Assembly: GCA_049322955.1 (NCBI GenBank)
Contig: JBMOPU010000012.1
Coordinates: 617,517-681,516, forward strand
Source: Patescibacteria group bacterium
Lineage (GTDB): Bacteria; Patescibacteriota; Microgenomatia; UBA10105; UBA927
DNA: 64,000 bases
Direction of reading: 5' to 3'
Position numbers and translations under genes: made by a program. The number at the start of each line of letters is the position of its first letter. The first letter of the stretch is position 1. The notes beneath the pieces are model-generated. The model did no database searches. It saw nothing but the letters and a program-made list of their open reading frames with translations, and was not told the origin of the DNA. Positions 10,985-63,425 of this stretch are shown here, piece after piece.

Positions 10985-11010
10985 AAAAAAATCCCGCGGG
11001 GCGGGATTCT
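10985..11010 (-). terminator. intrinsic terminator (hairpin AATCCCGC-CCC-GCGGGATT followed by a T7 run on the minus strand)
   Basis: Perfect 8-bp GC-rich stem plus U-run read on the minus strand; nothing coding upstream of it on that strand for ~250 nt. Confidence 0.6.
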
Positions 11011-18243: not shown

Positions 18244-18270
18244 AAAAAAAATCCCGCTTGCGCGGGATCC
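18244..18270 (-). terminator. intrinsic terminator / possible attenuator between rplT and pheS (GGATCCCGCGCAAGCGGGAT + T8 on the minus strand)
   Basis: GC-rich hairpin followed by eight U read on the minus strand, ~100 nt downstream of the rplT stop. Confidence 0.6.
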
Positions 18271-28797: not shown

Positions 28798-28952
28798 GGG
28801 TTATGCGAGCTTTTTTTACCGTACGTTATGTCGTGAAGAAGCATTGAATACTTGTAACCGCGACACCCTGCAAAGTGTGATGCGTTTTGTGCTCCCGAGA
28901 GAAACGATCCCCTAAGGGGTACCACATCCCGCTCAGCGGGATACGTTGAGTG

Positions 28953-29034
28953 TGCCGCTGAGAGGACTTGAACCTCTAAGCCTTACGGCACAGGTTCCTA
29001 AAACCTGCGTGTCTACCAGTTTCACCACAGCGGC
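28953..29034 (-). tRNA. tRNA-Leu (anticodon TAG), long variable arm, no encoded CCA
   Basis: Manual fold: acceptor GCCGCTG/CAGCGGC, anticodon loop TTTAGGA, T-loop TTCAAGT; near-identical to tRNA-Leu(GAG) at 41370. Confidence 0.8.
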
Positions 29035-31584: not shown

Positions 31585-31656
31585 CGCCCTTGGAGGGAAT
31601 CGAACCCCCATCACCTGTTCCGAAGACAGGCACTTTATCCATTAAGCTACAAGGGC
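31585..31656 (-). tRNA. tRNA-Arg (anticodon TCG), no encoded CCA
   Basis: Manual fold: acceptor GCCCTTG/CAAGGGC, anticodon loop CTTCGGA. Confidence 0.8.
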
Positions 31657-31659
31657 AAC

Positions 31660-31738
31660 TGGGGTGGCTGAGCGGATTCGAACCGCCGACATTCTGCTCC
31701 ACAGGCAGACGCTCTAACCGGGCTGAGCTACAGCCACC
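31660..31738 (-). tRNA. tRNA-His (anticodon GTG) with encoded G-1 and encoded 3' CCA
   Basis: G(-1)GTGGCTG acceptor, anticodon loop CTGTGGA, 3' end CAGCCAC-C-CCA; 3 nt from tRNA-Arg. Confidence 0.8.
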
Positions 31739-37091: not shown

Positions 37092-37167
37092 CGGGGTGTG
37101 GCTCAATTGGTAGAGTGCGCGCTTTGGGAGCGTGAGGTTCCGAGTTCGAGTCTCGGCACCCCGACCA
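37092..37167 (+). tRNA. tRNA-Pro (anticodon TGG) with encoded CCA
   Basis: Manual fold: acceptor CGGGGTG/CACCCCG, anticodon loop TTTGGGA, T-loop TTCGAGT, 3' A-CCA. Confidence 0.8.
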
Positions 37168-37177
37168 ATGGACGATT

Positions 37178-37292
37178 CGGGGTGCGGTATCTCGTTCCGA
37201 GTTCTCCGTGGGTACACGGGATCGTTGGCAGTAAGACTCAGCGCGATGCGCGCTTCGTTAACTGCCTCCGTCGAGTCTAGGCACCCCGACTG
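37178..37292 (+). pseudogene. degenerate / scrambled tRNA-Pro-like element (tRNA-like structured RNA or att remnant)
   Basis: Shares the acceptor 5' CGGGGTG, a GTTCCGAGTTC block, a GCGCGCTT block and 3' GAGTCT-GGCACCCCGAC with the adjacent tRNA-Pro, but is ~115 nt and the blocks are in a different order. Confidence 0.35.
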
Positions 37293-40136: not shown

Positions 40137-41153
40137 TTATAGCGTATTTTCGCCGCGCATAGCCGAAGGAAGCGTGGAAGCGCTCTTCGTAAGCTTGGCA
40201 ACGAAGAATCCTTCCATAAGCGATGAAGGGAAAACCCGTCCGGTACGGGCAACGGATGGATCGAACACCGTGCCGTCCCATTGTGATAACACGGGATCAA
40301 AAGTAAAGTGCGGTAATACGAGCGTATCGACGGTAACGACTCCTTTTTCCTTTTTGACAATCCAGTCGATGACGCTTTCGTTTTCTTCGGGGCTTAGCGT
40401 ACAGGTGGAGTACACGATAGTTCCTCCGGGTTTCGTGGCACTGATTGCCGAACGGAGCATCCATTTTTGGGCACGGGAAAGTTCCCGTACTTTTTTTACC
40501 GACCAGTCGGAAAAACTTTTCGGATCGTTTGCCTGAAACCGCCCTTCCATACTGCAGGGTACATCAACGAGCGTTTTGTCGAAATATTCGGGGTATTTCT
40601 GCCAGATAGCCCTGGCATCATCGTTGGTGACCCGAACAATAGTTGCCCCCTGAAGCGCAATATTTGCTTTTAGCCGATAGAGACGAACGTGACTTGCATC
40701 GTTTGCCAGGATCTCCCCCTTATTCTCCATGAGTGTCGCCATTTGGGTAGTCTTACTCCCCGGGGCGGCGGTGATGTCGAGCACTCTTTCACCCGGTTTC
40801 GGATCAAGAATAAGCGGCGGAAGCATACTCGAAAGACTTTGTACATAAATACAGCCTTCCTTATAGAGCCCGGTGTCGGTTAGTTCCCTCAGTGTTTTGT
40901 TTTCCAACACAAACGCGTTTTCCTGCCAATCGATAATGCTTATCATAAAGCCGAGCTTTCCGATTGTACGTAACGCATCGACGGTTTTTATCTTAAGGGT
41001 ATTTACCCGAAAGGTTGTTTTTCGATCATTGTTGAAAGCGGCCAAAACGCGGTGCAGGCGATCGTCCGGGACAATAGCGGAAAGTCGCTCAAGAAATTCT
41101 TTGGGAAGTGCGTTCGCAGGTGTAGCATCCATGGTTTGATTGTACCGCGCCAA
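40137..41153 (-). CDS. NOL1/NOP2/Sun-family RNA m5C methyltransferase (RsmB/RsmF-like)
   Basis: SAM-binding DITAAPGSKT, catalytic DVPCS and TC(T) motifs. Confidence 0.75.
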   Translation of the reverse strand: MARYNQTMDATPANALPKEFLERLSAIVPDDRLHRVLAAFNNDRKTTFRVNTLKIKTVDALRTIGKLGFMISIIDWQENAFVLENKTLRELTDTGLYKEGCIYVQSLSSMLPPLILDPKPGERVLDITAAPGSKTTQMATLMENKGEILANDASHVRLYRLKANIALQGATIVRVTNDDARAIWQKYPEYFDKTLVDVPCSMEGRFQANDPKSFSDWSVKKVRELSRAQKWMLRSAISATKPGGTIVYSTCTLSPEENESVIDWIVKKEKGVVTVDTLVLPHFTFDPVLSQWDGTVFDPSVARTGRVFPSSLMEGFFVAKLTKSASTLPSAMRGENTL

Positions 41154-41190: not shown

Positions 41191-41272
41191 GCCCGGATGG
41201 CGAAACTGGTAGACGCGTACGCTTCAGGAGCGTATGCCGCAAGGCTTGGGAGTTCGAGTCTCCCTCTGGGCA
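41191..41272 (+). tRNA. tRNA-Leu (anticodon CAG), long variable arm, no encoded CCA
   Basis: Manual fold: acceptor GCCCGGA/TCTGGGC, anticodon loop TTCAGGA; a TATAAT box at 41172-41177. Confidence 0.8.
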
Positions 41273-41294
41273 CACGGTGTCTTGTTTTGAGTGA

Positions 41295-41336
41295 AGCGAA
41301 ATCCCGCTTGGCGGGACGAGTCCGCTTCTGGGCACA
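41295..41336 (+). other. degenerate tRNA-Leu 3'-half-like remnant (variable-arm-like hairpin + T-arm-like hairpin + CTTCTGGGCACA)
   Basis: GAGTCCGCTTCTGGGCACA matches 16/19 nt of the tRNA-Leu(CAG) 3' end GAGTCTCCCTCTGGGCACA ~60 nt upstream. Confidence 0.35.
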
Positions 41337-41369
41337 AAACAAAAAAATTGCTATAATGAGTATCTCGTT

Positions 41370-41451
41370 GCGGGTGTGGTGAAACTGGTAGACACGCAGT
41401 CTTGAGGAGGCTGTGCCGTAAGGCTTAGAGGTTCAAGTCCTCTCACCCGCA
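41370..41451 (+). tRNA. tRNA-Leu (anticodon GAG), long variable arm, no encoded CCA; its 3' end is overlapped by the integrase gene
   Basis: Manual fold: acceptor GCGGGTG/CACCCGC, anticodon loop TTGAGGA; TATAAT at 41352-41357. Confidence 0.8.
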
Positions 41452-42968
41452 CAAGAAGAGATAGCACCGTTATCAAAGGTGCAAATTGATTGATATAACG
41501 GGCTAATCTCGCGGTTCAATGTACCATTTTGACTCCAAGCTAGTCCTGAGGGGAAGATTGAACCCAAGAGTACTTTGATCTGGCTGATACTCGATCTTTT
41601 GTAGGCTTCTCCTAAATCTGCAAGTAAAGTCCTGATAAATGTTGTTACATCATCGATGTTGTATCTATCAATTGTTGCGTCGTTTTTTACAACCTGCGCT
41701 TTTACCATTCTGTCTTCAACTACAGAATTTTGCTCCTTAAATACCTCATCTGAATAGACACCTGCAAGGTTCTTTTCTACTAGGGTTTGCCTGAGTGCTT
41801 TCAGGGTCGCGATTTCTTGATCTGCCTGGCTTTTAATCTTCTGCAATCTTGCCAGACGAGTGTGATAAGTGCGATATAGAAAAGCGATAAATAGATCTAG
41901 ACATTCTTTCTTCGGGGTTACATCTTTGAGCGTCTCAATCACTGATCCTTCCAAGACATCTGCTTTGGCTGCAACTCCTTTGCAGATACCACCGCAACGA
42001 TAGTAGGCGTATCTAGCGTGTCTGCCTCTACTCCAACCACCAGTCATTCCTGTGCCACATTCTTTGCAACGGACGATCCTTCGCAGTGGAAAATCTGGGT
42101 TAGAGTGAACTCTCTTGGCTAGGGCAACTTTATTGGGATTTCTCCCGTCCAGAATCGCCTGTACTCGGTAAAACTGTTCCTCGGTAATCATTGGCACATG
42201 CTGAGCTTTGACTTCCTCACGATACGTTTTAGAAGTTAATAATCCTAGATAGAACTTATTCCTAAACAACACGTTTGCACGTTGTGCCCTAATCATAAAC
42301 TCTCTTTTTCCGTGATGTTCCCTAAGTCCCCAAGCGTTCATTAAATCTGCCATTTCTTGAAGGCTTTTACTACCAGTCGCCATCAAGTTCCAGGCTTTTT
42401 TCATCAAATCCCATGTTTTATCATCTTTAATGGCATAACCAGCTTGAACTGAGTAACCTAGTGGTACTTGGCCTGTGACAATCATTCCAGATAAGTATCT
42501 AGCCTTTAAGCCATTTCGCGATCGTTCACTGCGAATATCGTTATCAAGTTGTGCAAACCCGGCAAGAATAGTTTCTACAAGCTTTTCAGTAGGGCTATCT
42601 CCGGTAGGCTCAGTAGCCGAAATAATGGTGACACCGTTTTCAGTGAGCTTTTTTCTAATTGCTAAATAGTCGGCGGTAATACGAGAGACGCGATCAAGGC
42701 GATAAACAAATACGGCCTGTACCTTATGCTTTTGTTTTCGACAGAACTCTAAAAGCTGGATAAGAATTGGTCTTCCAATAATTGTCTTGGCTGAGCGACC
42801 TTCCTCTCTAAATACTTCCGTAATTTGGTAACCTCTTTTTTCTGCTTCTTTCCGACAAATTTCCTCTTGCGTATCCAGCGAGAAGTTATCTACCTGTTCT
42901 TCAGTCGAAACACGAAGATAAAGTACTGCTTTTTTACCGTCCGCATATATCACATTTGTTTTATTCAT
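41433..42968 (-). CDS. large serine recombinase (integrase)
   Basis: N-terminal resolvase domain (VLYLRVSTEEQ, catalytic Ser), recombinase domain, Cys-rich zinc-ribbon region; 511 aa; last 18 nt overlap tRNA-Leu(GAG). Confidence 0.8.
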   Translation of the reverse strand: MNKTNVIYADGKKAVLYLRVSTEEQVDNFSLDTQEEICRKEAEKRGYQITEVFREEGRSAKTIIGRPILIQLLEFCRKQKHKVQAVFVYRLDRVSRITADYLAIRKKLTENGVTIISATEPTGDSPTEKLVETILAGFAQLDNDIRSERSRNGLKARYLSGMIVTGQVPLGYSVQAGYAIKDDKTWDLMKKAWNLMATGSKSLQEMADLMNAWGLREHHGKREFMIRAQRANVLFRNKFYLGLLTSKTYREEVKAQHVPMITEEQFYRVQAILDGRNPNKVALAKRVHSNPDFPLRRIVRCKECGTGMTGGWSRGRHARYAYYRCGGICKGVAAKADVLEGSVIETLKDVTPKKECLDLFIAFLYRTYHTRLARLQKIKSQADQEIATLKALRQTLVEKNLAGVYSDEVFKEQNSVVEDRMVKAQVVKNDATIDRYNIDDVTTFIRTLLADLGEAYKRSSISQIKVLLGSIFPSGLAWSQNGTLNREISPLYQSICTFDNGAISSCAGERT

Positions 42969-43312
42969 TTTGCTCCTTTCTCATGTAGTAATTCTTGAAG
43001 TGTTAATCCATCAAATATGTTTCGCTCGTATTCATCCAGCCAAGACTCGGTTAGATATTCGACCTCTGTAATTATGTCGCTCAGTTCTGTTTCGGTGAAT
43101 TGATTTGCCAACGACCCCAAGGCATCCTTAGCAACCTTGATTCGCTTATCTGCTTGTTTTTGTTCTGGGAAGATTGCTTCAAGTGATTGGGAAATTGTTG
43201 GTGTTTGATTGTATTTGAAAGTCGATTGACCGACAGGTTGAAGATATGGCTGAACAATTTCCTGTCTGGTATATTGCTGTTGGATGTGTACTAATTCTAG
43301 GCTCATGGGCAT
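42965..43312 (-). CDS. hypothetical protein translationally coupled to the integrase (candidate recombination directionality/accessory factor)
   Basis: 4-nt overlap with the integrase start; 115 aa, acidic; no recognised domain. Confidence 0.3.
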   Translation of the reverse strand: MPMSLELVHIQQQYTRQEIVQPYLQPVGQSTFKYNQTPTISQSLEAIFPEQKQADKRIKVAKDALGSLANQFTETELSDIITEVEYLTESWLDEYERNIFDGLTLQELLHEKGAK

Positions 43313-43471: not shown

Positions 43472-46081
43472 ATGTTGAAAAACAATATCATCCTCACAAC
43501 TATTTACAAAGAAATTCAATCTATTGGAGTATTTCTTGCCCCGTATTTCAACTCTATTTCAGTCACCTTAGTCAATTACAAACTATATCTAGTATTAGGT
43601 ATATCGGTAATCATAGTTATTTGGATAATCTACCACGCTGCTAGACTATATCTATCGTGGAAAGAAGCTACTAAACAATTCACATTATTTGAAGTATCTC
43701 CACCAACTTCTACAGAACAAAGCTCGTTTACCACCACCCAACTGTTCACATCAGTTCACGGATTACTACGCCAACGCTCATTGCTTCTCAGGCTATTTGA
43801 TGCAACTAAATCTTATTCTTTTGAGATTGTCTCTACCAAAGAAAAGGGTATCAGATACATCTTAAGAGTGGGATCGGATGACGCCCCGATTATCAAAAAG
43901 AATTTGATCTCGTATTTACCGGGCATACAAGTAAAAGAAACGGTCGAATATTTAGACGAAACCAGTGATCAGGGGCATGTTGTTGATATAAAACTCAATA
44001 ATCATTTTGCGTTTCCTCTCAAAAAGCAAGATAACCTGCCGGAGTACGATCCAATCGCCTATATCACGGGCACTATGACTAAATTAGGATCACATGAACT
44101 CGTGGCTGCTCAAATTATTGTCGCGCCAGTTAGTAGGTCTACTATAGAATTTGTTGCACGGTTACGATCACTCTTCTTAGGAAAGAAAGATGTTTTATCA
44201 GAACTTAAAGGTACAAGCCTTATAAACTCAATTGTGATATCCATCGTTCATTTTTGTTTACAAATTGTATTGTTTCCGCTCGGGCTACTTGTTTGGATTC
44301 TTACTGGTGGTCGAGAAGGGCCAATTCTATCTATTATGACGCTTGGCGCACAGCTACCCGATAGTACTTATAAAGATATAGTTGAAACCCAGATAAAACA
44401 AAAGATCGACCAGCAATTATTCACCGTTTCATTACGTTATCTCACTGTCTCAAGTAGCTATCAGGATAGAGTTAGAATCGAAAAAGGCTTTATTGCAGCC
44501 CTCAGTCCATTTACTAATGGCGGATATCAAAACCTGCGACCCAAAAGATATTTGAAAATTAAGTCAATCAATAAACTATTGTTATGGCTGTACAAACATC
44601 GCTTATTTAGCTTTGTTGGTAACTTAGTTCTATCAAGCTCAGAGTTGTCTGATTTGTATCACTTCCCATATACGAGTATTACCAAAACTGAAAACTTATC
44701 TAAGCTACACAGCAAAGAATTACCAGCTCCATTATCTTTAAAACAAAAGTCTGAACTCGACATATATTTTGCCAAAAACACTTATGGCGGCACAGATACA
44801 CCAATTGGATTAACCGAAGATGAACGTCGTCGCCATGTCTATATTATTGGCGCAACCGGCACTGGCAAGTCCACCATGCTTTTATCCATGATCAAACAAG
44901 ATGTAGATAACAACAAAGGTTTGGCTGTTATTGATCCGCATGGTGATTTAACAGATCAGATTGTTTCCGTCATTCCTAGAGATCGGATTAAAGATGTCGT
45001 GTATTTTAACCCAGACGATATTAGCTACCCCATGGGGATTAACTTACTTGAATTAACTCCAGGACTTCCAGAAGAGCAAGCCATCAGAGAAAAAGAATTT
45101 ATTGCCGAAAGCATAATTTCCGTATTTCAAAAGATTTACACGGATAAATACTCGGGGCCTCGCATGGAATACATACTCCGCAATACGATTCATACGGCTT
45201 TTACCGTACCCAATGCCACGCTGTTTACCATCTATAAACTCCTTATCAATACGAGTTATAGAAAATCGGTCACTAAAAACCTGACTGACGAAAACCTCAA
45301 AGACTTCTGGAAGTATGAGTTTGCCAAGGCTGGAGATTACCAGAAAGTCAAAATGATCTCACCGATCACTAACAAGATTGGACGCTTCCTATTTTCTCCC
45401 ACAGCCAAGCGAATACTCGAGCAAGGCAAGTCCACAATAAATTTTGACACAATTATGAATGAGGGAAAAATTCTGTTATGCAATCTCTCTAAAGGTAAAG
45501 TTGGTGAAGATAACTCAAGCGTCTTTGGTGTGCTTATTATGGCTAAGATACAACTTTCAGCCTTAAAACGAGCCAGGATAAAGCAGGAAGATCGCAAGGA
45601 CTTCTATTTATATGTAGATGAATTCCAAAACTTTGCCACTCCTGCCTTCGCCCAGATCCTCTCAGAAGCCAGAAAGTATCGACTCAATGCGATTCTGGCT
45701 CACCAGACCACTTCACAACTTGAAGAAACATCACTTGTAAATGTAACTTTGGCAAATACAGGTACAGTAATTTGCTTCAGAACCGCTAACCCTGAGGATG
45801 AACGGATGATCCTGCCACAGTTTCGACCATATATAGAGCAAGGTGAAATTGCCAGTTTGCCGTCATACCACTTCTATATGCGTCTTGGTGCACTTAATCC
45901 AGAAGAACCGTTCTCAGGCGTAACAATACCAGTAAAGATTGAATACAGTCAAAATAGGGTTGATGAGGTGATCGAGTCATCGAGGAAACTGTACGCTAAA
46001 AAGTACACTGGAGCAGTTGAAGCCATCAGCAAACCTAAAGAAAAGCAGGCATCTAAAAAGGTGTATTCAGCGCTTCCTTGA
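43472..46081 (+). CDS. type IV coupling protein-like P-loop ATPase (VirD4/TraG/TraD family) with N-terminal TM helices
   Basis: Two N-terminal TM helices; Walker A GATGTGKST; IDPHGDL...VYFNPDDISYPMGINLLE (IDPKGE / FNPxD..NPL pattern of T4CPs); Walker B LYVDEFQNF; LAHQTTSQL. Confidence 0.55.
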   Translation: MLKNNIILTTIYKEIQSIGVFLAPYFNSISVTLVNYKLYLVLGISVIIVIWIIYHAARLYLSWKEATKQFTLFEVSPPTSTEQSSFTTTQLFTSVHGLLRQRSLLLRLFDATKSYSFEIVSTKEKGIRYILRVGSDDAPIIKKNLISYLPGIQVKETVEYLDETSDQGHVVDIKLNNHFAFPLKKQDNLPEYDPIAYITGTMTKLGSHELVAAQIIVAPVSRSTIEFVARLRSLFLGKKDVLSELKGTSLINSIVISIVHFCLQIVLFPLGLLVWILTGGREGPILSIMTLGAQLPDSTYKDIVETQIKQKIDQQLFTVSLRYLTVSSSYQDRVRIEKGFIAALSPFTNGGYQNLRPKRYLKIKSINKLLLWLYKHRLFSFVGNLVLSSSELSDLYHFPYTSITKTENLSKLHSKELPAPLSLKQKSELDIYFAKNTYGGTDTPIGLTEDERRRHVYIIGATGTGKSTMLLSMIKQDVDNNKGLAVIDPHGDLTDQIVSVIPRDRIKDVVYFNPDDISYPMGINLLELTPGLPEEQAIREKEFIAESIISVFQKIYTDKYSGPRMEYILRNTIHTAFTVPNATLFTIYKLLINTSYRKSVTKNLTDENLKDFWKYEFAKAGDYQKVKMISPITNKIGRFLFSPTAKRILEQGKSTINFDTIMNEGKILLCNLSKGKVGEDNSSVFGVLIMAKIQLSALKRARIKQEDRKDFYLYVDEFQNFATPAFAQILSEARKYRLNAILAHQTTSQLEETSLVNVTLANTGTVICFRTANPEDERMILPQFRPYIEQGEIASLPSYHFYMRLGALNPEEPFSGVTIPVKIEYSQNRVDEVIESSRKLYAKKYTGAVEAISKPKEKQASKKVYSALP

Positions 46082-46181: not shown

Positions 46182-46991
46182 ATGATACAATCATTCCAAG
46201 CTGCCCAAAACATAACTATGGACAGTCCTAAACTACCGCAAGCACAATTAGATATTCTTCATTATCTCTATAGATTCCGATTCTTAACCAGTCTTCAACT
46301 TCAAAAACTTCTCAAACACTCAAACATTCGCTTAACTAACTACCATCTCAAAAACCTGATTACTCAAAACTACATAGGTAAACATTATTCGCGTTCCCTA
46401 GGACTCACCAATCAACCAGCCGTCTACTATCTTTCATCTGGAAGTATTAAATTACTATCAGATCACATCGACTTTGATAAACGAGCTCTCAAACGGATTT
46501 ATCGAGAGAAGATACGATCGCAACAATTTATTACTCATGCTTCATTTCTTGCGGATTATTTTCTATTCCTTAGATCCGAGTCCGAAAAATCAGGTCATAC
46601 AATTCATTTCTTTACTAAAACCGACTTACTCGCTCATCCATACCTACTACACCCTTTACCGGATGCGTATTTTGCCAGAGTTGATAAAGCAGGGAAAACA
46701 AAACGATATTTTGTCGAAGTAGTCGAGGACAGTTCTCCTCGTTTTGCCCTGCGAAAAAGAGTCGAACAATACTGTGACTACATTGATGACGGCAAGTTCA
46801 CGGAAGCGACTGGCCATGATTTTCCAGTCTTGCTATTTATCTGCCCCGGGCGTGCAAGTCTTATCTACCTTAAGAAACATATTGCGCGTATCTATGAAGA
46901 AACATCGCTTGACCAAATTGAGATTTACATTGCCACAAAAGAGAGTGCCTTCGCTGGTAATTGGGAAATGATTGAGGTTGAAGATGAGTAA
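46182..46991 (+). CDS. replication-relaxation (Replic_Relax)-family-like protein with N-terminal wHTH
   Basis: N-terminal LDILHYLYRFRFLTSLQLQKLL wHTH-like segment; size and context next to the T4CP. Confidence 0.4.
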   Translation: MIQSFQAAQNITMDSPKLPQAQLDILHYLYRFRFLTSLQLQKLLKHSNIRLTNYHLKNLITQNYIGKHYSRSLGLTNQPAVYYLSSGSIKLLSDHIDFDKRALKRIYREKIRSQQFITHASFLADYFLFLRSESEKSGHTIHFFTKTDLLAHPYLLHPLPDAYFARVDKAGKTKRYFVEVVEDSSPRFALRKRVEQYCDYIDDGKFTEATGHDFPVLLFICPGRASLIYLKKHIARIYEETSLDQIEIYIATKESAFAGNWEMIEVEDE

Positions 46992-48949: not shown

Positions 48950-49387
48950 TTAATCAGATTCATTTTTTGGAATACTGAGTAATTTTTCGATCCTTTTCAT
49001 ACGCTTATCCCGCCCTTCGATAAAACTTCTAGCGAGAGTAGAAAAAATGTATAGTCCCAGGCCAACACCTATAAAAATGTAGGCAACTGTAAAAAGTTTT
49101 GTCGCTGTGGTAGTTGGATGTAGATCACCGTATCCGACAGTTGCTAGTGTAACAACTGAGAAATAAAAAGAGTCGATATAACTCCAGCCTTCATATGATG
49201 AATAAAAAGCAGTGCCCACAATCAGCAAAATAGATAGCGTTGAAATAGTCGCGATAAATCCTGGTGGTGGTTTTACGCCAGTAAGCTGTTCATGTATTTC
49301 GGAAAGTAGCCAATGTAAAATACGTTTCATAATAGCAATAATTTTATTGATCTTTATTATTAATATTCTTCCGAGTGTTATAGTCAA
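48950..49387 (-). CDS. small two-TM potassium channel (pore-only, TVGYGD selectivity filter)
   Basis: FYFSVVTLATVGYGDLHP pore helix + filter between two TM helices; a likely start is the internal ATG at ~49327. Confidence 0.7.
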   Translation of the reverse strand: MTITLGRILIIKINKIIAIMKRILHWLLSEIHEQLTGVKPPPGFIATISTLSILLIVGTAFYSSYEGWSYIDSFYFSVVTLATVGYGDLHPTTTATKLFTVAYIFIGVGLGLYIFSTLARSFIEGRDKRMKRIEKLLSIPKNESD

Positions 49388-49482
49388 TCATAGTTTATGA
49401 ACTTTTTGCTTCCTATAAAAATGTAAGGGTAGGTTCAAAGACAGAGATGATTGAGAGACGCCAGCAAATTGTTTTTGTTCTT

Positions 49483-50697
49483 TTATTCATGTCTCAGTGC
49501 TTCTATCGGTGACAGTTCACTTGCTTTTTTAGCCGGCGTCACGCCAAAAATTATGCCTACTCCGGCAGAGACAGCGAATGCTAAAGCTATTGACCACCAA
49601 GCAACAGTAATAGGCATGAAGTTTCCGATAAGAAGTGCTCCACCTGCACCAAGCAAAATCCCGATAATACCGCCTCCAACGGACAAAATGGTAGCTTCGA
49701 GTAGAAACTGTGTCAGAATAACTTCCGGTTTGGCCCCCAAGGCTTTTCGCAAACCGATTTCCTGGGTGCGTTCCGTCACTGATACCAGCATGATATTCAT
49801 GATGCCAATACCTCCCACTAACAAAGAAATAGCAGCAATACCCCCCAAGGCAATTGTCAAAGTATTCAATATACTAGAAACAGTCGATAGAATTTCCTTC
49901 TGATCAAGCACGGTAAATTCACTCGATTCCAACCTTCGACTCATAATACTTTCAACCATTTCTACCGCAGGGGTGACGTCTTCGGATGATGTTGCCTGAG
50001 CAAAAATAACACCTAAATGATTCTGATTAAATTGTCTTTGAGCGACAGTTACAGGAATGAACACCTTATCATCTGAGCTCATACTACCTTGGCCACCAGC
50101 TTCTTCAATGACCCCGACAATGGTGTATCGGTAATCACCGAGTTTAATTTTTTCACCGATAATATTGGTGGTTCCAAAAATATCATCGGCAACTTTGTAG
50201 CCGACGACGGCTACTTTTCTGCCAGAATTAACGTCCGCTTCAGAGAAAAAATCACCTGAAGCGAAGTTGGTACTACGCACTTTGGTGTAATCCGCAGTTG
50301 TACCAAATATCTGCGCCATTTGCGACTCTCCCTGATAGCGAATCGGTGCAGACCCCACAACCATTGCAGCTGCGTGTTTTATATATGGCACTTGCTCTTT
50401 AATTGTCGCTAAATCGTCCATCTCAAGTTTTGAAGCGGACATGGCGGCAAAACTACTCGACATAGCTCCACCACCAGCAACATTATCTAAGTCAATTTCT
50501 CCTGGCATCACCATCACCAGATTGGACCCCATATCCTCCATCTGGCTGGTTATGTAATCCTTAAGCCCAGAGCCGACGGAAACTAGAAGAATAACTGAGG
50601 CAACCCCAATAATGACACCGAGTGAGGTGAGCACTGAACGGTTTTTATTGGCTTTAATTGCCCTGAGGGCTACTTTTAATAATGATTTAAATGGCAT
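49483..50697 (-). CDS. MacB/FtsX-family ABC transporter permease
   Basis: N-terminal TM, large periplasmic domain, C-terminal FtsX-type 3-TM bundle; 404 aa. Confidence 0.75.
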   Translation of the reverse strand: MPFKSLLKVALRAIKANKNRSVLTSLGVIIGVASVILLVSVGSGLKDYITSQMEDMGSNLVMVMPGEIDLDNVAGGGAMSSSFAAMSASKLEMDDLATIKEQVPYIKHAAAMVVGSAPIRYQGESQMAQIFGTTADYTKVRSTNFASGDFFSEADVNSGRKVAVVGYKVADDIFGTTNIIGEKIKLGDYRYTIVGVIEEAGGQGSMSSDDKVFIPVTVAQRQFNQNHLGVIFAQATSSEDVTPAVEMVESIMSRRLESSEFTVLDQKEILSTVSSILNTLTIALGGIAAISLLVGGIGIMNIMLVSVTERTQEIGLRKALGAKPEVILTQFLLEATILSVGGGIIGILLGAGGALLIGNFMPITVAWWSIALAFAVSAGVGIIFGVTPAKKASELSPIEALRHE

Positions 50698-50705
50698 ATA
50701 TATTG

Positions 50706-51422
50706 TTACGAAACTATTTTTCCGTCTTTAATAGTGATTATTCGATCAGCTTGGCTTGCAACCGAGCCATCATGGGTAACTAAAATAATCGTCTTTCCGT
50801 GTTGATGCAAGTTTCTGAAAATTTGCATGACCTCTTTTCCTGACTTTGAGTCCAGATTTCCGGTAGGCTCGTCTCCCAAAATAACCGGAGCGTCCGTTAT
50901 TAGCGACCTGGCGATAGCTACCCTTTGCTGCTGCCCGCCTGAAAGCTGATTGGGATGATGGTAAAGTCTTTCGCCGAGACCCACCATTTCCAACATTGCT
51001 TTGGCTTTTTCCAGGGCATGTTCTTCGGAAGTGTGATTATAAATCAGCGGCAGGCTCACATTTTCCAAGGCACTGGTTCTGGCAAGTAGGTTAAAAGCCT
51101 GAAAAACAAAGCCGATTTTTTGATTTCTGATTTCTACCAGTTCGCTTTCCTCTAATTTACTGATATCGTGGCCGTCCAAGATAATTTTGCCTTCGGTTGG
51201 CACATCCAGGCAACCAATGAGGTGCATCAGGGTTGATTTACCTGAACCCGATGGTCCGGTGATCGACACGAATTCCCCTCGCTCTATAGACAGGGAAACA
51301 CTGTCAAGCGCTTTTACCGCAATGCCATCCATCTGATAGGCCTTGGTCACATTTTGAACAGAGAGAAGGACATTTTTGCTACTCATATTGTGTTTCTTAT
51401 TTACTTTCCTTAACCAGGACAA
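50706..51422 (-). CDS. ABC transporter ATP-binding protein (MacB/LolD-type)
   Basis: Walker A GPSGSGKST, ABC signature LSGGQQQRVAIARS, Walker B ILGDEPTGNLD. Confidence 0.85.
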   Translation of the reverse strand: MSWLRKVNKKHNMSSKNVLLSVQNVTKAYQMDGIAVKALDSVSLSIERGEFVSITGPSGSGKSTLMHLIGCLDVPTEGKIILDGHDISKLEESELVEIRNQKIGFVFQAFNLLARTSALENVSLPLIYNHTSEEHALEKAKAMLEMVGLGERLYHHPNQLSGGQQQRVAIARSLITDAPVILGDEPTGNLDSKSGKEVMQIFRNLHQHGKTIILVTHDGSVASQADRIITIKDGKIVS

Positions 51423-52467
51423 CTTCCTGACCTTCTTCTACGCCAGATGCAACTTCCGTTTGGGAAATAGTTGAGAGGCCAACAGTCACTTCCCGGGATA
51501 CTGGCTTGCCATTCTCCAAGATATAGACATATGTCTTTCCTTGGTTGTGTTTAATAAATTCCCTGGGAATAGAGAGGACGTTTTCTTTCTTGGCAATGAT
51601 AAAATCAGCGTCTCCGGACAAGCCGACCGCTAGTCTCTCATCAACTTTGGTAAAGGTTATTTCGATGGGGATGGTAACTCCACCGCTTAATGTTTTCTCT
51701 CCCTCTTTACCGATAAAACTGACGGCACCTTCAAATGACTGATCAGGAAAAGCGTCCAGTTGAATTTCTACCTTCTGTCCGACCTGGATTTTGCCAAAAT
51801 CAACCTCGTCAATTTGGGCAATAAAGTAGAGTGTGGACAGGTCAGCAACCTTGATAATTTTAGTTGCCAGATTTGCTGCCGTTAAATTCTCTCCTGCAAT
51901 TAGACCGCCGGTGCTCAGAACCGTGCCGGAGATGGGTGAAACTAATACTGCATCTTTTGCCGCGACATCAGCTATTTCGACATCCAAAACCGATTTATCA
52001 AGTCCGAACTGGGTTTTTTCCAGGATTCGTTTTTCTTCATCGGTCAGGAGTACCTGCTCCAGGGATCGTCCATCGACATCGTAGTTGTCCTGTGTTTGCT
52101 CAAAGTCCCATCGATTTGTCTGGTAGTCCAGTAATTTTTTTCGTAGGTTTTTTTCCAGGGTGCGTTTATCCAACGAGGCAACTGATTGCCATTTCTTGAC
52201 CCTATCACCTTTTTTAACTCCCAACCAAACTATCTTGCTTGGGGTATTAAAGCGTAATTCCGCATAATCCTTTGCTTGCACATTGCCTGAGGCATTCACG
52301 GACTCGGTAATATCTTGTCTTTTGACGGTGGTGGTCCGGAGTTCATCGCCATTTTGACGGAAAGTGATATACCCAGTTGAAATAGTGACCAGCAGTAAGA
52401 GTGCTATATACCACTTGTATTTTTTAAGACGATCGACAACAGTTTGTTTTTTAGTATTTTGTGACAT
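51397..52467 (-). CDS. HlyD/MacA-family periplasmic adaptor (membrane fusion protein)
   Basis: N-terminal TM, coiled-coil and beta-barrel segments typical of MFP; located upstream of the ABC pair. Confidence 0.7.
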   Translation of the reverse strand: MSQNTKKQTVVDRLKKYKWYIALLLLVTISTGYITFRQNGDELRTTTVKRQDITESVNASGNVQAKDYAELRFNTPSKIVWLGVKKGDRVKKWQSVASLDKRTLEKNLRKKLLDYQTNRWDFEQTQDNYDVDGRSLEQVLLTDEEKRILEKTQFGLDKSVLDVEIADVAAKDAVLVSPISGTVLSTGGLIAGENLTAANLATKIIKVADLSTLYFIAQIDEVDFGKIQVGQKVEIQLDAFPDQSFEGAVSFIGKEGEKTLSGGVTIPIEITFTKVDERLAVGLSGDADFIIAKKENVLSIPREFIKHNQGKTYVYILENGKPVSREVTVGLSTISQTEVASGVEEGQEVVLVKESK

Positions 52468-52476
52468 AGTGCACCT

Positions 52477-53037
52477 CTAAACTTTTTGGGTTAATAATTC
52501 AGTTAAATCTTTTGCTGTTTGCTTGGTATTTTTCCCATGCATTAAATAAAAGGGAGACAGAGTAATACTTATAATAGAAGTGGCCAAGGTAAATAAAACC
52601 GAATATGTAGATGTCCTGACAAAATCCAACCCTTTAATCATCAATAATATTGATTTTATTAATTCCTGTCTAAGTTCTGTTGCTAGTTCCAGCATAGGAA
52701 CACGTTCATCATTTTGTACCCCTAACGATACCAGTAAAGAAATTTCGGGGTGTCCTAGCTTAAAGTTGAGCAATGTCTTGGTGATGTTGAAAACCATATC
52801 AGACGGGAGAATACTAGCGTTAACCGTCAGTTTTAACTCACTTTTCAGTTCGCTCACAGCATCTCGGAGCAGTATTTCCACCAAGGCATCCTTGCTTTCA
52901 AAGTGGTAGTAAAGGGCGGCCTTGGTAATACCCACTTCGTTAGCAATATCCTGCATGGATACGCCAAAATAGCCCTTTTGAGATAGGAGCTTTCCAGCTT
53001 TCTGTAGTATTATTGTTTTAGTTTCTGATTTTTTCAT
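52477..53037 (-). CDS. TetR-family transcriptional regulator
   Basis: N-terminal HTH GYFGVSMQDIANEVGITKAALYYHF. Confidence 0.8.
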   Translation of the reverse strand: MKKSETKTIILQKAGKLLSQKGYFGVSMQDIANEVGITKAALYYHFESKDALVEILLRDAVSELKSELKLTVNASILPSDMVFNITKTLLNFKLGHPEISLLVSLGVQNDERVPMLELATELRQELIKSILLMIKGLDFVRTSTYSVLFTLATSIISITLSPFYLMHGKNTKQTAKDLTELLTQKV

Positions 53038-53134
53038 AATATTTACTAACCGTTCGGTAAGTATAATACCTCACATTGCATTTGTCAACACACCACATAC
53101 CTGAAAACAAAGGGAGAGTAACAACAAGCGCGAT

Positions 53135-53458
53135 TTAGGAAGATTTACTTAAGTATTTTTCCGCAAATAATTTAATTTGCTTTAAAATTGGTAAGATACC
53201 TATTCCCTTATCGGTTAGAGCGTAAACTACTGATAATTTATCAACCGTTTCCTCTTTACGTACTATAAGGCCTTGCTCTTCCAGCTTTTTTAGCCTATTA
53301 CTCAGTGTTGTAGGATTAATGCTTGCAAGCTCCCGTTCAATTTCAGAGAATCTTTTTTCAGAAGCGCTTAGGACTTGAATTATCGAGAGTGTCCAATAAT
53401 CACCTAGAATTTGTAATTCATGAGCCGAACATTTATTGGTATTACTTTGTGTTGACAT
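53135..53458 (-). CDS. HxlR-type winged-helix transcriptional regulator
   Basis: CSAHELQILGDYWTLSIIQVL...RFSEIEREL...LSNRLKKLEEQGLIVRKE. Confidence 0.75.
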   Translation of the reverse strand: MSTQSNTNKCSAHELQILGDYWTLSIIQVLSASEKRFSEIERELASINPTTLSNRLKKLEEQGLIVRKEETVDKLSVVYALTDKGIGILPILKQIKLFAEKYLSKSS

Positions 53459-53536
53459 GCTATAAAAACTGTAGTACTCTATTTATCGTAGTAATTATAT
53501 ACAAACAAGACGCAAAAATCAAATCGGGAGGATTTT

Positions 53537-54145
53537 ATGAAATACAACACAATACCTTCAAACGAAGTTATAGAAAAAACACAAAAAGCACTTGAGGCAA
53601 ACGGGATGCAAGTCATAATTGTCGAAAATGGCAGACAAGCAAAAGAAAAAGCTCTGTCTCTTATCCAAAAAGGCGCAAGCGTTATGACTGCCACTTCCAC
53701 AACGGCTCAGCAGATCGAACTTGATAAAGCAATCGATGAATCTTCAGATTTTGAATCTTTGAGAAAAAAAATTATGGCCCTTCCCCAAAGCGAGCAACGG
53801 GCTCAGGCAAGAAGGATTAATAGCTCACCTGATTATGTAGTGGGAAGTGTTCACGCAGTGACAGAGAACGGAAAAGTTGTTATTGCCTCAAACTCAGGCA
53901 GCCAGCTTGCCCCCTATGCTTTTTCGGCGGCAAAAGTTATCTGGGTAGTAGGTGCGCAAAAGATCGTTAAAAATCTTGAAGAGGCAACGAAACGCATTGA
54001 GGAATATACCTTTAAATTAGAAGATGAGCGAATGATGCAAGTGTATGGCATGCACAGCGGTATCAGAAAAACTCTGATTGTTGACTCCGAAGTCATGCCT
54101 GAGCGTATCACTATTATTCTGGTCAAAGAAAATCTGGGGTTTTAA
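53537..54145 (+). CDS. LUD-domain (LutC/YkgG-like) protein
   Basis: 202 aa with the lactate-utilisation-domain pattern (VIWVVGAQKIV...). Confidence 0.5.
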   Translation: MKYNTIPSNEVIEKTQKALEANGMQVIIVENGRQAKEKALSLIQKGASVMTATSTTAQQIELDKAIDESSDFESLRKKIMALPQSEQRAQARRINSSPDYVVGSVHAVTENGKVVIASNSGSQLAPYAFSAAKVIWVVGAQKIVKNLEEATKRIEEYTFKLEDERMMQVYGMHSGIRKTLIVDSEVMPERITIILVKENLGF

Positions 54146-54146
54146 A

Positions 54147-54758
54147 ATGAAGCTAGCAATTTTTGGGGCGACTGGCCCAAGCGGACAACTATTGGTAAAA
54201 CAGGCCTTACGAGCAGGTTATAATGTTACCGTGCTTGTCAGGGACCCTGCAAAATTAGGGGTTCAGAATAAAAACTTGACTGTTATAAAGGGTAACGTTT
54301 TAAATTACGATGATGTTGATAAAACAGTCAAAGGCCAGGATGTTGTATTAAGCGCCTTGGGAGTCAAACCACCAAGCCGGGAGAAAGTTGTCGGACCCGC
54401 AACCAGAAACATAGTCCGTGCCATGGTAAGTCATAGTGTAAAAAGGCTCATTGTAGAATCCGCGTTTTTTATGGACGAGTCCGTAAGAAAGAATCTGTTT
54501 ATAAAACTCCTTACCGTGACGTTTATGAAAGGTCTTTACGATGATAAAAAAATACAAAATGAAGCACTTCAGAAAAGCGGACTTGACTGGACAGAAGTAC
54601 GACCAACTATGCTTACTAATGGTCCCAAAAGCTCCTATAGAATAAACGTTAAGCCTGGAATGTTTTCAAAAATTTCAAGAGCAAATGTGGCGGATTTTAT
54701 GCTGAAAGAGATTGTCGACGGTAATTTTAAAAATAAGTCAGTCATAATAACAGAATAG
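54147..54758 (+). CDS. NmrA-like / atypical SDR NAD(P)H-binding oxidoreductase
   Basis: MKLAIFGATGPSGQLLVKQAL Rossmann motif at the ATG 54147, right after the LUD stop. Confidence 0.7.
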   Translation: MKLAIFGATGPSGQLLVKQALRAGYNVTVLVRDPAKLGVQNKNLTVIKGNVLNYDDVDKTVKGQDVVLSALGVKPPSREKVVGPATRNIVRAMVSHSVKRLIVESAFFMDESVRKNLFIKLLTVTFMKGLYDDKKIQNEALQKSGLDWTEVRPTMLTNGPKSSYRINVKPGMFSKISRANVADFMLKEIVDGNFKNKSVIITE

Positions 54759-54761
54759 CCT

Positions 54762-55142
54762 ATGCCCCAACAAGAATATATTCCGGGAGTTTGTAATATT
54801 GGACCTGCTGAAACAAAGAGACGAAAACAATCGGGATGGGTAGGGCTTGCCTTAACCGTTATCCTCCGGGGAATCCTTGTTTACATTAATGCCGCACCGG
54901 TCTGGCAACTGCTTCTCTTTTTTCCAGCGATGATGTCAGCAACAGGATTTTTGCAGGCATACATGCATTTCTGCGCTTATTTTGGCTTTACCTCGCTTTT
55001 TAATTTTGGCAATGTCGGTAAAACCGATTCAGTCCAGCAGGTAGAATTTCGTGTCCGGGATAGACACAAAGCATTGCAAATCGTAATCTATTCCGTGTTT
55101 ATCGGAATACTAGTTTCTGTATTAGCAGTATACATAAAATGA
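54762..55142 (+). CDS. small multi-TM hypothetical membrane protein
   Basis: 126 aa, 3-4 predicted TM helices. Confidence 0.4.
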   Translation: MPQQEYIPGVCNIGPAETKRRKQSGWVGLALTVILRGILVYINAAPVWQLLLFFPAMMSATGFLQAYMHFCAYFGFTSLFNFGNVGKTDSVQQVEFRVRDRHKALQIVIYSVFIGILVSVLAVYIK

Positions 55143-56080
55143 CTACTTTATCTCTCCCTCAGCCTGTGGCAATTTCAGTCGACCGCATTCATCCCGAAAG
55201 TCTGCCGGGCTATATTCACCTCAAAGTCGCTGATCTTGACAATCAAATTAGGTTTTACCAGCAGGTGATCGGCTTGCAGTTGAACTGGCGCAAGGATAAA
55301 AACGCCGCGCTCGGCGTCAACGGACACGATCTAGTGCGCATGAGTCAAGTGCAGGACGGTAAGCGGTACCGAGGCGTGACCGGTATGTATCACTTTGCCA
55401 TTCTATTTCCCAGCCGTCGTGAACTGGCGCGCGTGATTGCTCGCCTATTTGATAAGAAGTATCCGAATTATCCAACCGACCACATCATGACCAAGACCAC
55501 CTACCTCGATGACCCCGAAGGCAATAACATTGAGTTGTACTGTGAGTCGCCCGAAGATGGGGTGAATGAGATCAAAAAGGGGCAGTTTTATGTCCGCCGC
55601 GCTGACGGCTCCATTAGTGACGGGCGTGAAGCTATGGATTTGGATGCGCTTTTCTCAAACCTGACTGAAGACGACCTCCTCAACCTGCCCGTCCCACACG
55701 AAACGCGCATGGGACATTTCCATCTCTACGTCGCTAACTTGGAGGAGACACGCAAGTTCTATCACGACCTACTCGGCTTCGACGATATGGGGACTGCGAG
55801 TGGCTTCCGCATGGGAATGTTGTCTGCTGGAGCGTATCACCACCACATCGGATATAACACATGGCAGGGAGAGGGCGCGCCTCCTCCCCCCGATGACGCT
55901 CTGGGTTTGTTTTACTACACTTTTAACCTTCCCAATGTCCGGGAATTGAAAAGAATGGAACATTTACTGGAAACAAAAGATATTTCCTTCGAACGCCGCC
56001 CCAACGGTCTATTCATGAGCGACCCATCCCGAAACTCCTTACTCCTAACCACTGCTGAACTAGCGCGAGAGGGCAGGTGA
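55139..56080 (+). CDS. two-domain VOC (glyoxalase/bleomycin-resistance/extradiol dioxygenase) family protein
   Basis: Two tandem VOC modules (HLKVADLDNQIRFYQQVIGL...; HFHLYVANLEETRKFYHDLLGF...); noticeably higher GC than the surrounding island. Confidence 0.65.
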   Translation: MTTLSLPQPVAISVDRIHPESLPGYIHLKVADLDNQIRFYQQVIGLQLNWRKDKNAALGVNGHDLVRMSQVQDGKRYRGVTGMYHFAILFPSRRELARVIARLFDKKYPNYPTDHIMTKTTYLDDPEGNNIELYCESPEDGVNEIKKGQFYVRRADGSISDGREAMDLDALFSNLTEDDLLNLPVPHETRMGHFHLYVANLEETRKFYHDLLGFDDMGTASGFRMGMLSAGAYHHHIGYNTWQGEGAPPPPDDALGLFYYTFNLPNVRELKRMEHLLETKDISFERRPNGLFMSDPSRNSLLLTTAELAREGR

Positions 56081-56260
56081 AGAATTATAAGATCTCTAAT
56101 TGTGTTGCGCGAGGCATAATGGCAAATCAAAATTTGATTGGAAAATTGAAAAATAGGTAAATTGTTTTATATATTAATAGTTTTTTGTTACTCCATGATT
56201 TGCTTTCTTCTTGACTTTCTGCCTGGTTAGGATAATAATTCCCTCAAATTTACAAGAGCT

Positions 56261-56285
56261 GCCCCTCCGATAGGGGCTTTTTTGT
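56261..56285 (+). terminator. intrinsic terminator (GCCCCTCCGATAGGGGC + T6)
   Basis: Perfect 6-bp GC stem plus U-run downstream of the VOC gene. Confidence 0.6.
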
Positions 56286-56336
56286 AACTAGTCCTGCCTA
56301 AAGTTATAAATTATTGATTTATATGGAGGTCGGACT

Positions 56337-56672
56337 ATGAATAAAAAAATAATTGTTACTTCTTCTCTAGCCATCACGGCACTAATGTTTGCGTCACCAG
56401 TCTTTGCTGCTTCAGCCGACGTAACCAAAATAGAAACCTTCATCAAAAGCATTATCCAAATATTAGTTACCCTTGCCGGACTTATCTCCGCTGGTTTCTT
56501 TGTTTGGGGTGGCGTTGGCTATATCACAAGCTCAGGCAATCCAGAAACTCTCGACCGTTCCAAAAAAACTATCATGTACTCTGCCATAGGTTTAGCTGTA
56601 GTACTTGGTGCGTTTGTGTTGACTAATATCATCTCTGATTTAGCGACTGGAGCATTTGGCTCGGCGCAGTAA
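56337..56672 (+). CDS. VirB2/TrbC-like conjugative pilin candidate
   Basis: Signal peptide + two hydrophobic helices (ILVTLAGLISAGFFVWGGVGYI...; AIGLAVVLGAFVLTNII), 111 aa. Confidence 0.5.
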   Translation: MNKKIIVTSSLAITALMFASPVFAASADVTKIETFIKSIIQILVTLAGLISAGFFVWGGVGYITSSGNPETLDRSKKTIMYSAIGLAVVLGAFVLTNIISDLATGAFGSAQ

Positions 56673-56700
56673 GTCGGCCAATATTGGAATATGAACAAAT

Positions 56701-57990: not shown

Positions 57991-58460
57991 GAACTACGAT
58001 AATTCCAGCTCAGATTACGACTGTTGAAGATAAAGTGGCTGGCTCACTCAATATGACTCAGGTATTAATCCTGATGACGCCGATTCTTTGGACTGCTCTC
58101 ATCTACACTCTTTTTGCACCTACTATGAAGCTCGTGCCCTATAAGCTTGGGCTCATTGGCGTCGTGATCGTGATCTGTCTAATTCTCGTTATTCGGATTA
58201 AAGACAAAATAGTAGCTGAGTGGCTTGGAGTGGTACTCAGGTATCAATTCCGCCCTAAGTACTGGCTCTATAACAAAAACGATACTACTAACCGCATTAT
58301 TGATATTCCTGATATCCCAGACATTGCCCTTGTTAAACGAAAATCAACAAAGAAGGTCTCTAGCGATCAAAAGACTGAAATAAATATTTCTGACCTTGTT
58401 CGTCTCGAGCAATTAATCGACTCAGGCAAGGTAGCCGTTCGTTATCAAATGAAGAATTAA
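57987..58460 (+). CDS. VirB3-like small membrane protein
   Basis: Two TM helices; located immediately upstream of VirB4. Confidence 0.45.
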   Translation: MRTTIIPAQITTVEDKVAGSLNMTQVLILMTPILWTALIYTLFAPTMKLVPYKLGLIGVVIVICLILVIRIKDKIVAEWLGVVLRYQFRPKYWLYNKNDTTNRIIDIPDIPDIALVKRKSTKKVSSDQKTEINISDLVRLEQLIDSGKVAVRYQMKN

Positions 58461-58464
58461 AACT

Positions 58465-60874: not shown

Positions 60875-60876
60875 CT

Positions 60877-61503: not shown

Positions 61504-61590
61504 GGTAATTATGCCTATGAAGTACTATAATGTAGATATAATTAATTTTTGTTGATAGCAAATAAATAGTAGCCGAATAAACATAAAATT

Positions 61591-63423: not shown

Positions 63424-63425
63424 AT

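Follow-up and report, generated by a model that had tools for sequence, protein, structure and literature searches.

A putative conjugative element with a large serine recombinase at the 3' end of a tRNA-Leu gene in a Patescibacteria group bacterium

The stretch of DNA analysed here (the window; 64,000 nucleotides (nt) of contig JBMOPU010000012.1 from the Patescibacteria group bacterium assembly GCA_049322955.1) carries two neighbouring tRNA-Leu genes and, on the opposite strand, the gene of a large serine recombinase that reads into the 3' end of the second of them. A review describes elements with serine recombinases as integrating inside genes, and tyrosine integrases as the users of tRNA 3' ends (PMC5704250). 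The locus raises the question of how a serine integrase could make use of such a gene end, where the element joins the chromosome, and whether the spacer between the two tRNA genes records an earlier insertion. Our explanation, which we regard as probable when taken as a whole, is that the tRNA-Leu genes are landing sites, with a current integrative conjugative element (ICE) at tRNA-Leu(GAG) and an older scar beside tRNA-Leu(CAG).

The junction at tRNA-Leu(GAG)

Both tRNA genes lie on the plus strand and were found by ARAGORN as well as by Rfam, tRNA-Leu(CAG) as an intact gene at 41191-41273 (ARAGORN) or 41191-41272 (Rfam, 50.4 bits), and tRNA-Leu(GAG), through C74, at 41370-41452 or 41370-41451, respectively. 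The spacer between them is 97 nt, as a preliminary description of the sequence had stated. Upstream of the pair is a gene for an RsmB-like protein (40137-41132), which like its relatives is labelled Patescibacteria group bacteria in the source records. Two other loci (L001 and L002) encode exactly the same RsmB protein and have both tRNA genes and the spacer, and the island is absent from them. Over the 11.3 kb that end at 41452 their identity with the window is 99.98%, and after this point an open reading frame (ORF) of 155 amino acids (aa), a flavodoxin gene and Ddl stand in place of the island. All of the empty sites from the same species (L001, L002 and L113-L115) match the window to 41452 and diverge from 41453, and a second empty allele (L020, L123) has an 88-aa ORF after the same ..CACCCGCAC.

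Since window and empty sites are identical as far as 41452, the junction between host and element (the attL core, 41451-41453) lies directly after C74 of tRNA-Leu(GAG), and the preliminary description, which had placed it inside or at the tRNA, can be refined to position 73/74 by the empty sites together with the family comparison below. The tRNA gene is the same in occupied and empty sites, and the insertion leaves the mature tRNA-Leu(GAG) unchanged. It provides the B arm of attL, that is, the T-arm and the acceptor 3' strand. The P' arm of the attachment site (41453-41483) lies inside codons 496-506 of the integrase gene, and elements at other tRNA-Leu genes have it unchanged; the 60 nt after ..GCAC are the same in L028, L029, L034, L038 and others. 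That the place is an integration hotspot, as had been claimed, is supported by what follows tRNA-Leu(GAG) in the different strains: the island in the window, the 155-aa ORF in L001 and L114, and the 88-aa ORF in L020 and L123. In other genera this tRNA gene is occupied by serine-recombinase islands that differ from that of the window, or by a mini-island between repeats.

The base after C74 is A in the window and T and C in the two empty alleles, which places the exchange at or before C74. The simplest reading is that the two base pairs A73-C74 (41451-41452) are the crossover core, and the corresponding core in the subfamily at tRNA-Gly would be U73-C74. Several points weigh against so exact an assignment. 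The differing base is compatible with a crossover at 73/74 and does not prove it. The attR and attP of the element were not recovered, as the island exceeds both the window and the contig that prolongs it (L108), and for this reason the dinucleotide rests on one junction and a comparison between hosts. No repeat was found in the complete small island of L121, and an attR that we had placed there at ..AGTTC|TAGCGAA is probably wrong, as L126 has a homologue of the adjacent ORF outside its mini-island. Searches of the window for a further tRNA end (24 nt, at most 3 mismatches) and for the right flank of the empty site gave nothing, and look-ups of the 155-aa flank protein (P0121, P0126, P0127) returned empty sites only.

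A 35-mer is identical in tRNA-Leu(GAG) (41411-41445) and tRNA-Leu(TAG) (28959-28993), covering variable arm and T-arm, and because of it assemblies with k=31 break at 41440 and 41416. Logan contigs that end at 41440 were considered as a sign of an attR repeat, and this was ruled out by the same 35-nt identity.

The integrase and its target rule

The integrase gene (41433-42968, minus strand) encodes 511 aa with the domains of a large serine recombinase: residues 14-161 match Resolvase (PF00239, E 2.4e-32), the N-terminal catalytic domain with its serine nucleophile, and Recombinase (PF07508, E 1.7e-8) and Zn_ribbon_recom (PF13408, E 2.1e-7) both pass their cut-offs. R19-V20-S21 is invariant among 40 homologues compared. 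The top PHROG match is phrog_95 integrase, the top NCBIfam match is CcrB with a score far under the model cut-off, and the sequence match to the A118 integrase structure 4KIS is weak. A scan of viral contigs gave a single distant relative. The gene end is shared with the tRNA. Read on the opposite strand, TCA in the T-loop TTCAAGT of tRNA-Leu(GAG) gives the stop codon TGA (41435-41433), the last 5 codons and the stop are antisense of the tRNA, and the final residues C-A-G-E-R-T are read from the antisense of acceptor and T-stem. The overlap amounts to 19 nt when counted to the discriminator or 20 nt to C74, and the 18 nt given earlier has to be corrected. Conservation among homologues stops at I495, and the tail past about residue 495 is variable and probably dispensable.

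There are more than 1000 homologues of the integrase, the best 120 of which are 64-97% identical over the full length, and the C-terminal tails of these 120 (..SSCAGERT, ..SSADERS, ..PSGAGDGNRTRDLLLGKE..) read like translations of antisense tRNA 3' ends. A metagenome scan with the integrase gave 80 loci, 64 of them evaluable in having enough sequence after the gene, and the integrase ORF ends within an antisense tRNA in 61 of the 64. The tRNAs are those for Leu (GAG, CAG, TAG, TAA, CAA), Gly, Glu, His, Val, Met and Ser. Judging from these sequences, tRNA 3' ends are the normal target for this very large integrase family. Integrases that are 94-98% identical to that of the window occur at four tRNA-Leu isoacceptors (GAG, CAG, TAG, TAA), where the identical element end AAGAAGAGATAGCACCGTTATC.../AAGAAGAGATAGCACCGTTATCAAAGGTGC.. 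begins directly after ..GCAC, and two that are 96% identical are at tRNA-Leu(CAG) in L031 and L032. The acceptor stems differ between hosts (GCCCAGG, GCCGAGG, GCCGAGA, GCGGGCG, GCCAAGG, GCGGGTG), and are paired at 7/7 positions in 61 of 62 tRNAs, the remaining one being cut by a contig end. Stems that vary and still are fully paired imply that the acceptor 3' strand is host DNA and that the exchange takes place 3' of position 72.

The three evaluable loci with no tRNA after the integrase (L052, L056, L069) count against the rule, and could represent attP junctions or other sites. In L052 a tRNA-Leu-like stretch (17/23) takes the place of the tRNA, with the stop codon at the same position. What follows the integrase in L069 has only GCTCCA in common with tRNA-Gly, and when this locus was considered as an attP junction, none of the loci retrieved had homologues of its downstream proteins.

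Just inside the element end, within the codons of the integrase tail, many family members have a short palindrome (L078, L084, L086 and L095 among them), for instance GGGAGTCCATCACTCCC, GATGGCAGTGCCATC or GCACC..GGTGC in the P' arms, and that of the window is at 41464-41482. A further serine recombinase, of 533 aa, was seen in the close relative L114 (RsmB protein 90%), where it reads into the 3' end of tRNA-His (L114:1-361, corresponding to window 31656-31737) and sits between tRNA-His and tRNA-Arg(TCG), two genes that in the window are separated by 3 nt.

For the current element, we hold with considerable confidence that an ICE was inserted by its own integrase, with exchange at A73-C74 and with P' inside the end of the integrase gene. 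An element of at least 26.7 kb, from 41453 onward, would have been inserted by its own large serine recombinase into a chromosomal site, one half of which would be the T-arm and acceptor 3' strand of tRNA-Leu(GAG). Strand exchange would occur at the dinucleotide formed by discriminator and C74, so that the mature tRNA would remain host-encoded and intact, and only its 3' trailer would be swapped. The element half-site P' would lie within the last ~10 codons of the integrase. As P' sits within the gene end, the integrated ORF would have no stop codon of its own, and it would cross the junction into the antisense tRNA up to the first in-frame stop, here the TGA of the T-loop. With a 73/74 crossover, attR should be the P arm and then TAGCGAACATGG.., with AC at the join.

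A crossover in the T-loop, as has been proposed for the recombinase DsiB at ssrA, would instead mean that the element brings the last ~19 nt of the tRNA and leaves a direct repeat of ~19 nt at the far end of the island. The Dehalococcoides ssrA islands do have 20-bp repeats beginning in the T-loop (PMC3146451). In L126 a perfect 19-nt repeat of the tRNA-Leu(GAG) end, from T-loop to C74, is found 319 nt downstream, with a weak antisense remnant of an integrase C-terminus between the copies (LGSFFP..IPPMYPS, E 0.006 in a tiny search space), and the tRNA-Leu-like sequence of L052 where the tRNA would be also fits. The L126 repeat is however equally explained by a P arm that mimics the tRNA end. 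Nearly the same integrases (94-98% identical), with the same element ends, stand beside six different and perfectly paired acceptor stems, which one would not expect of an element that supplies the 3' strand. In the 60 loci searched, the 10 kb upstream of the integrase had no repeat of the tRNA end (at least 20/30), nor was there one in the complete L121 island. We thus find a T-loop crossover quite unlikely.

If the exchange at discriminator and C74 is kept, a more general reading suggests itself, which we put forward tentatively and consider possible rather than probable. The serine integrase family, which comes mostly from Patescibacteria-type genomes, would have taken over the tRNA-3'-end niche of the tyrosine integrases by reading one conserved half-site and crossing at discriminator/C74, and its C-terminus and stop codon would switch with the integration state. 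A one-sided half-site and such a crossover would allow one integrase to serve several isoacceptors and many hosts with no tRNA sequence carried by the element, and the state-dependent C-terminus could be a built-in sensor of integration.

The spacer between the tRNA-Leu genes

The preliminary description had also seen the 3' half of tRNA-Leu(CAG) mimicked in the spacer and had likened this to a decayed att duplication. Positions 41306-41335 align to positions 53-83 of tRNA-Leu(CAG) with 23/30 identities and no gaps. The last 20 nt of the tRNA, from the T-loop to the discriminator plus CA, have an imperfect repeat at 41317-41336 on the plus strand (CGAGTCCGCTTCTGGGCACA), with 16/20 identities when the ARAGORN end is used and 17/20 with a register shift of one nt. 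One in 5000 dinucleotide shuffles attains the score of the spacer, which is the best non-tRNA stretch of 96 nt in the window. As a control, the 3'-terminal 20 nt of all 11 tRNAs in the window were compared with the 1 kb downstream of the respective gene; nine gave 11-13/20, tRNA-Leu(CAG) gave 16/20 at +43 and tRNA-Pro 17/20 at +106. We take the tRNA-like stretch to be real. The GC hairpin to the left of the repeat, TCCCGC-TTG-GCGGGA at 41302-41316, is the core of the minimum-free-energy fold of the spacer and had been read as a variable arm, and here the earlier claim fails. It is one of four (A)TCCCGC-loop-GCGGGA(T) hairpins in the window (10992-11006, 18252-18267, 28927-28941, 41302-41316), and for that reason gives no specific evidence of a variable arm and is better not counted as derived from a tRNA. 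Two members of this terminator-type family are canonical terminators, being followed by T-runs on the minus strand, and two lie after tRNA-Leu genes, tRNA-Leu(TAG) included. What stands of the mimicry is the repeat at 41317-41336, with ungapped similarity reaching back to 41306.

The repeat beside tRNA-Pro(TGG) (37092-37167) is GAGTCTAGGCACCCCGACTG at 37273-37292, 106 nt 3' of the tRNA, and L001 and L123 have it too.

In relatives where the two tRNA genes likewise stand in tandem (L125, L022, L049, L054), the spacers are only 25-38 nt long. In L125 and L022 the flank (C)AAAAC..GCTATAAT (AAAAC..TGCTATAAT) comes directly after tRNA-Leu(CAG), and in the window only after 41336. As the native flank resumes after the repeat, 41273-41336 behaves as an insert of 64 nt on the plus strand whose right end copies that of the tRNA. 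Mini-inserts bounded by repeats, 44-740 nt long, were seen beside other tRNAs of related loci, tRNA-Pro of the window has a repeat of this sort, and L021 has a 3' fragment of tRNA-Leu(CAG) (59 nt) where the window has the remnant. That integrases of 96% identity sit at tRNA-Leu(CAG) in L031 and L032 also speaks for an insertion at this gene. We suggest that an older insertion at the 3' end of tRNA-Leu(CAG) left these 64 nt, closing with a degenerate copy of the last 20 nt of the tRNA. A scar of this kind is the most likely origin of 41273-41336, although our confidence in it is only somewhat better than even. The decayed att duplication is in this sense the best reading, yet it is unproven, and it has nothing to do with the present island: the remnant is found in the empty-site strains as well, which makes it older than the island and unrelated to it.

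Some observations speak against the scar. The left 44 nt have no significant similarity to the P' ends of the integrase family, and when the left part of the scar and the L126 mini-island were compared with integrase 3' ends, similarity at the DNA level was not significant and the protein match was weak. The Rfam tRNA model has no match on the spacer. The spacer is almost invariant among close relatives, which fits a function as well as youth.

Such a function is at the centre of one alternative, that the similarity is not historical at all and that the spacer is a terminator hairpin and a promoter, with the 20 nt alike by chance or through selection for a -35 box or a processing signal. A sigma-70-like promoter of tRNA-Leu(GAG) was indeed predicted at 41329-41357 on the plus strand (TGGGCA, a spacer of 17 nt and TATAAT with TG; 10/12 matches to the consensus, on which the call is based), and its -35 hexamer TGGGCA lies within the remnant; tRNA-Leu(CAG) has a TATAAT promoter-like box of its own upstream. 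The generic hairpin family, the missing Rfam match, the fold z-score of -1.7 and the conservation of the spacer in close relatives all agree with this alternative. The 16-17/20 identities in comparison to 11-13/20 in the controls, and the shuffles (1/5000), do not. Neither does the fact that the block closes precisely with GGGCACA, the motif of the tRNA end, and then gives way to the flank that relatives have after the tRNA, nor that there is a similar repeat beside tRNA-Pro. A purely functional origin is to our mind very unlikely, and the stretch, whatever its origin, probably serves today as a hairpin and promoter.

Another alternative starts from L021 (2900-3190), where 120 nt with an intact tRNA-Leu(CAG) are inserted into an old tRNA-Leu(CAG) and divide it at position 24/25. 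The 59-nt 3' fragment of the old gene that results is located as the remnant of the window is, and the latter could likewise be the 3' leftover of an old tRNA-Leu(CAG) replaced by a cassette, of a GIY-YIG homing-endonuclease type, with an intact copy. In L022 and L126, GIY-YIG ORFs and 5' tRNA fragments lie upstream of tRNA-Leu genes, and the T-stem strand CCGCT of the remnant (CCTCT in L020) is nearer to that of tRNA-Leu(CAG) in relatives (CCTCT both in L125 and in the old copy of L021) than to the CTCCC of the resident gene. Upstream of tRNA-Leu(CAG) in the window, however, there is neither a 5' tRNA fragment nor a GIY-YIG ORF, the tRNA-like part of the remnant is recognisable over 20-30 nt only, and repeats from T-loop to C74 recur at many tRNAs that have no cassette of this type. 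We therefore think that replacement by a cassette is unlikely, and prefer the scar of an insertion.

Related loci show further rearrangements around tRNA genes. GIY-YIG ORFs with 24-nt 5' tRNA fragments and short GC palindromes are found at L022:9600-10000, L126:100-484 and L021:2900-3190. In L043, mini-inserts of 118-125 nt follow tRNA-Leu(CAG) and tRNA-Gln (2074-2220 and 3287-3425); they have a right end of ~60 nt in common (GACGGAGCTGTGRCGACAGCGAGTCCGG..), each closes with the 3'-end repeat of its own tRNA, and in the first one the repeat also takes in 41 nt of the downstream terminator. The orientation of tRNA-Leu(GAG) relative to tRNA-Leu(CAG) is opposite in L125 (2284-2476) and L126 (402-1351), which have an identical RsmB protein, and the pair is convergent and not tandem in the genus to which L010 and L121 belong. 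This suggests that the segment with the tRNA genes has been inverted.

The island and its known counterparts

At 41.4 kb the GC content falls from ~0.49 to ~0.40, and it stays low through the window end. The low-GC element occupies 41453-64000 and runs at least 4.2 kb further: contig L108 is 100% identical to window 55700-64000 and reaches the equivalent of 68181, ending within a gene, which makes the island at least 26.7 kb. Its plus-strand genes include a type IV coupling protein (VirD4/TraG/TrwB-like, by domain matches; 43472-46081), a Replic_Relax protein that is a putative relaxase or replication-relaxation protein (46182-46991, E 1.9e-10), this match being the basis of the relaxase assignment, and a type IV secretion module with two VirB2/TrbC pilins, PrgI, a TraC-like protein, a VirB4-like ATPase and an M23 peptidase (56337-61503). 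Cargo genes at 48950-56080 encode a K+ channel, a MacB-type ABC efflux system with HlyD and TetR, and LUD, NmrA-like and glyoxalase proteins, and a DUF2958 protein is also encoded in the island. At 61591-63423 (plus strand) follows the KAP NTPase (QatA) of a QatABCD defence system, with QatB-D past the window on L108. The rest of this anti-phage system (QatB, QueC-like, TatD) is at L108:7727-10647, and after it come NERD, HTH and PLD-like genes. The conjugation module looks complete, and its backbone is common to L010, L013, L031, L036, L037 and L046. With integrase, coupling protein, VirB4-type ATPase, putative relaxase and pilin genes together, the island is by its predicted gene content an ICE, and the occurrence of occupied and empty alleles within one species is indirect evidence of its mobility. 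Overlapping the integrase start by 4 nt is a 115-aa ORF (42965-43312, minus strand), which is kept beside the integrase in relatives and has no match in Pfam, PHROG or NCBIfam; by its position it is a candidate directionality factor. None of the ~25 island ORFs scanned besides the integrase has a Resolvase domain.

The preliminary description had called the site unusual for a serine integrase, and this is true in comparison to the textbook rule (PMC5704250), but there is a precedent in DsiB at ssrA (PMC3146451), and in the present family such sites are the norm. The closest precedent is the ssrA-specific genomic islands of Dehalococcoides with the serine recombinase DsiB, the ORF of which overlaps attL and ends in ssrA (PMC3146451, McMurdie et al. 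2011). In both cases a CcrB-like large serine recombinase is the first gene at attL and reads toward a tRNA-like RNA gene, the GC content is low, the cargo is variable and the site is a hotspot; CcrB is also the best NCBIfam match of our integrase, which we liken to DsiB by its description. The differences are several. DsiB targets ssrA, and the family of the window targets tRNA genes of at least seven amino-acid types. The DsiB repeat starts in the T-loop, whereas the junction in the window is at 73/74 and no 20-bp repeat was found. Beside DsiB there is a second, small serine recombinase, DsiA, and the neighbour gene of our integrase has no resolvase domain. The window element moreover carries a full conjugation module. 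Among the papers open to our literature search, none describes tRNA-targeting serine integrases in Patescibacteria.

Tyrosine-integrase ICEs and integrative mobilizable elements are known from tRNA 3' ends, e.g. NBU1 at tRNA-Leu (PMC5704250). As in these islands, the 3' end is targeted in the window, the tRNA stays functional, scars and tandem remnants pile up and hotspots arise. The tyrosine systems however depend on 15-60 bp of identity that the element brings along and that remain as a block, whereas in the window the enzyme family and chemistry are different, the acceptor strand is host-derived and no long repeat is seen. The window integrase belongs to the same broad branch of large serine recombinases as CcrAB and CcrC of SCCmec. 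SCCmec integrates at the extreme 3' end of the conserved housekeeping gene rlmH/orfX, and the target gene stays active (as cited in PMC3146451). It differs from the element of the window in that the target is a protein gene, there are two recombinases, the integrase ORF stops short of the target and conjugation genes are lacking. For archaeal integrases of the SSV type the int gene is split upon integration, and in the integration-dependent immunity of mycobacteriophages attP lies inside the repressor gene. In these cases, as would be so in ours, an element protein has one C-terminus in the integrated and another in the excised state, but the integrases are tyrosine integrases and the change of the C-terminus is known to be regulatory.

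The main interest of the locus is the family-wide rule and the one-sided attachment site at the tRNA end. If the mapping holds, serine integrases can enter tRNA gene ends and do not have to supply a replacement segment of the tRNA, since a 2-bp exchange placed at the boundary between discriminator and CCA makes such a segment needless. The family would then provide, ready-made in nature, closely related integrases whose chromosomal sites are diverse and yet predictable, which would be useful for studies of how asymmetric sites are read and for engineering. Patescibacteria have genomes of ~1 Mb and are often considered poor in mobile DNA. The loci compared here document conjugative elements with defence and efflux cargo moving among them, and the scars at tRNA-Leu(CAG) and tRNA-Pro would mean that insertions recur and that the leftover sequence is reused as terminator and promoter.

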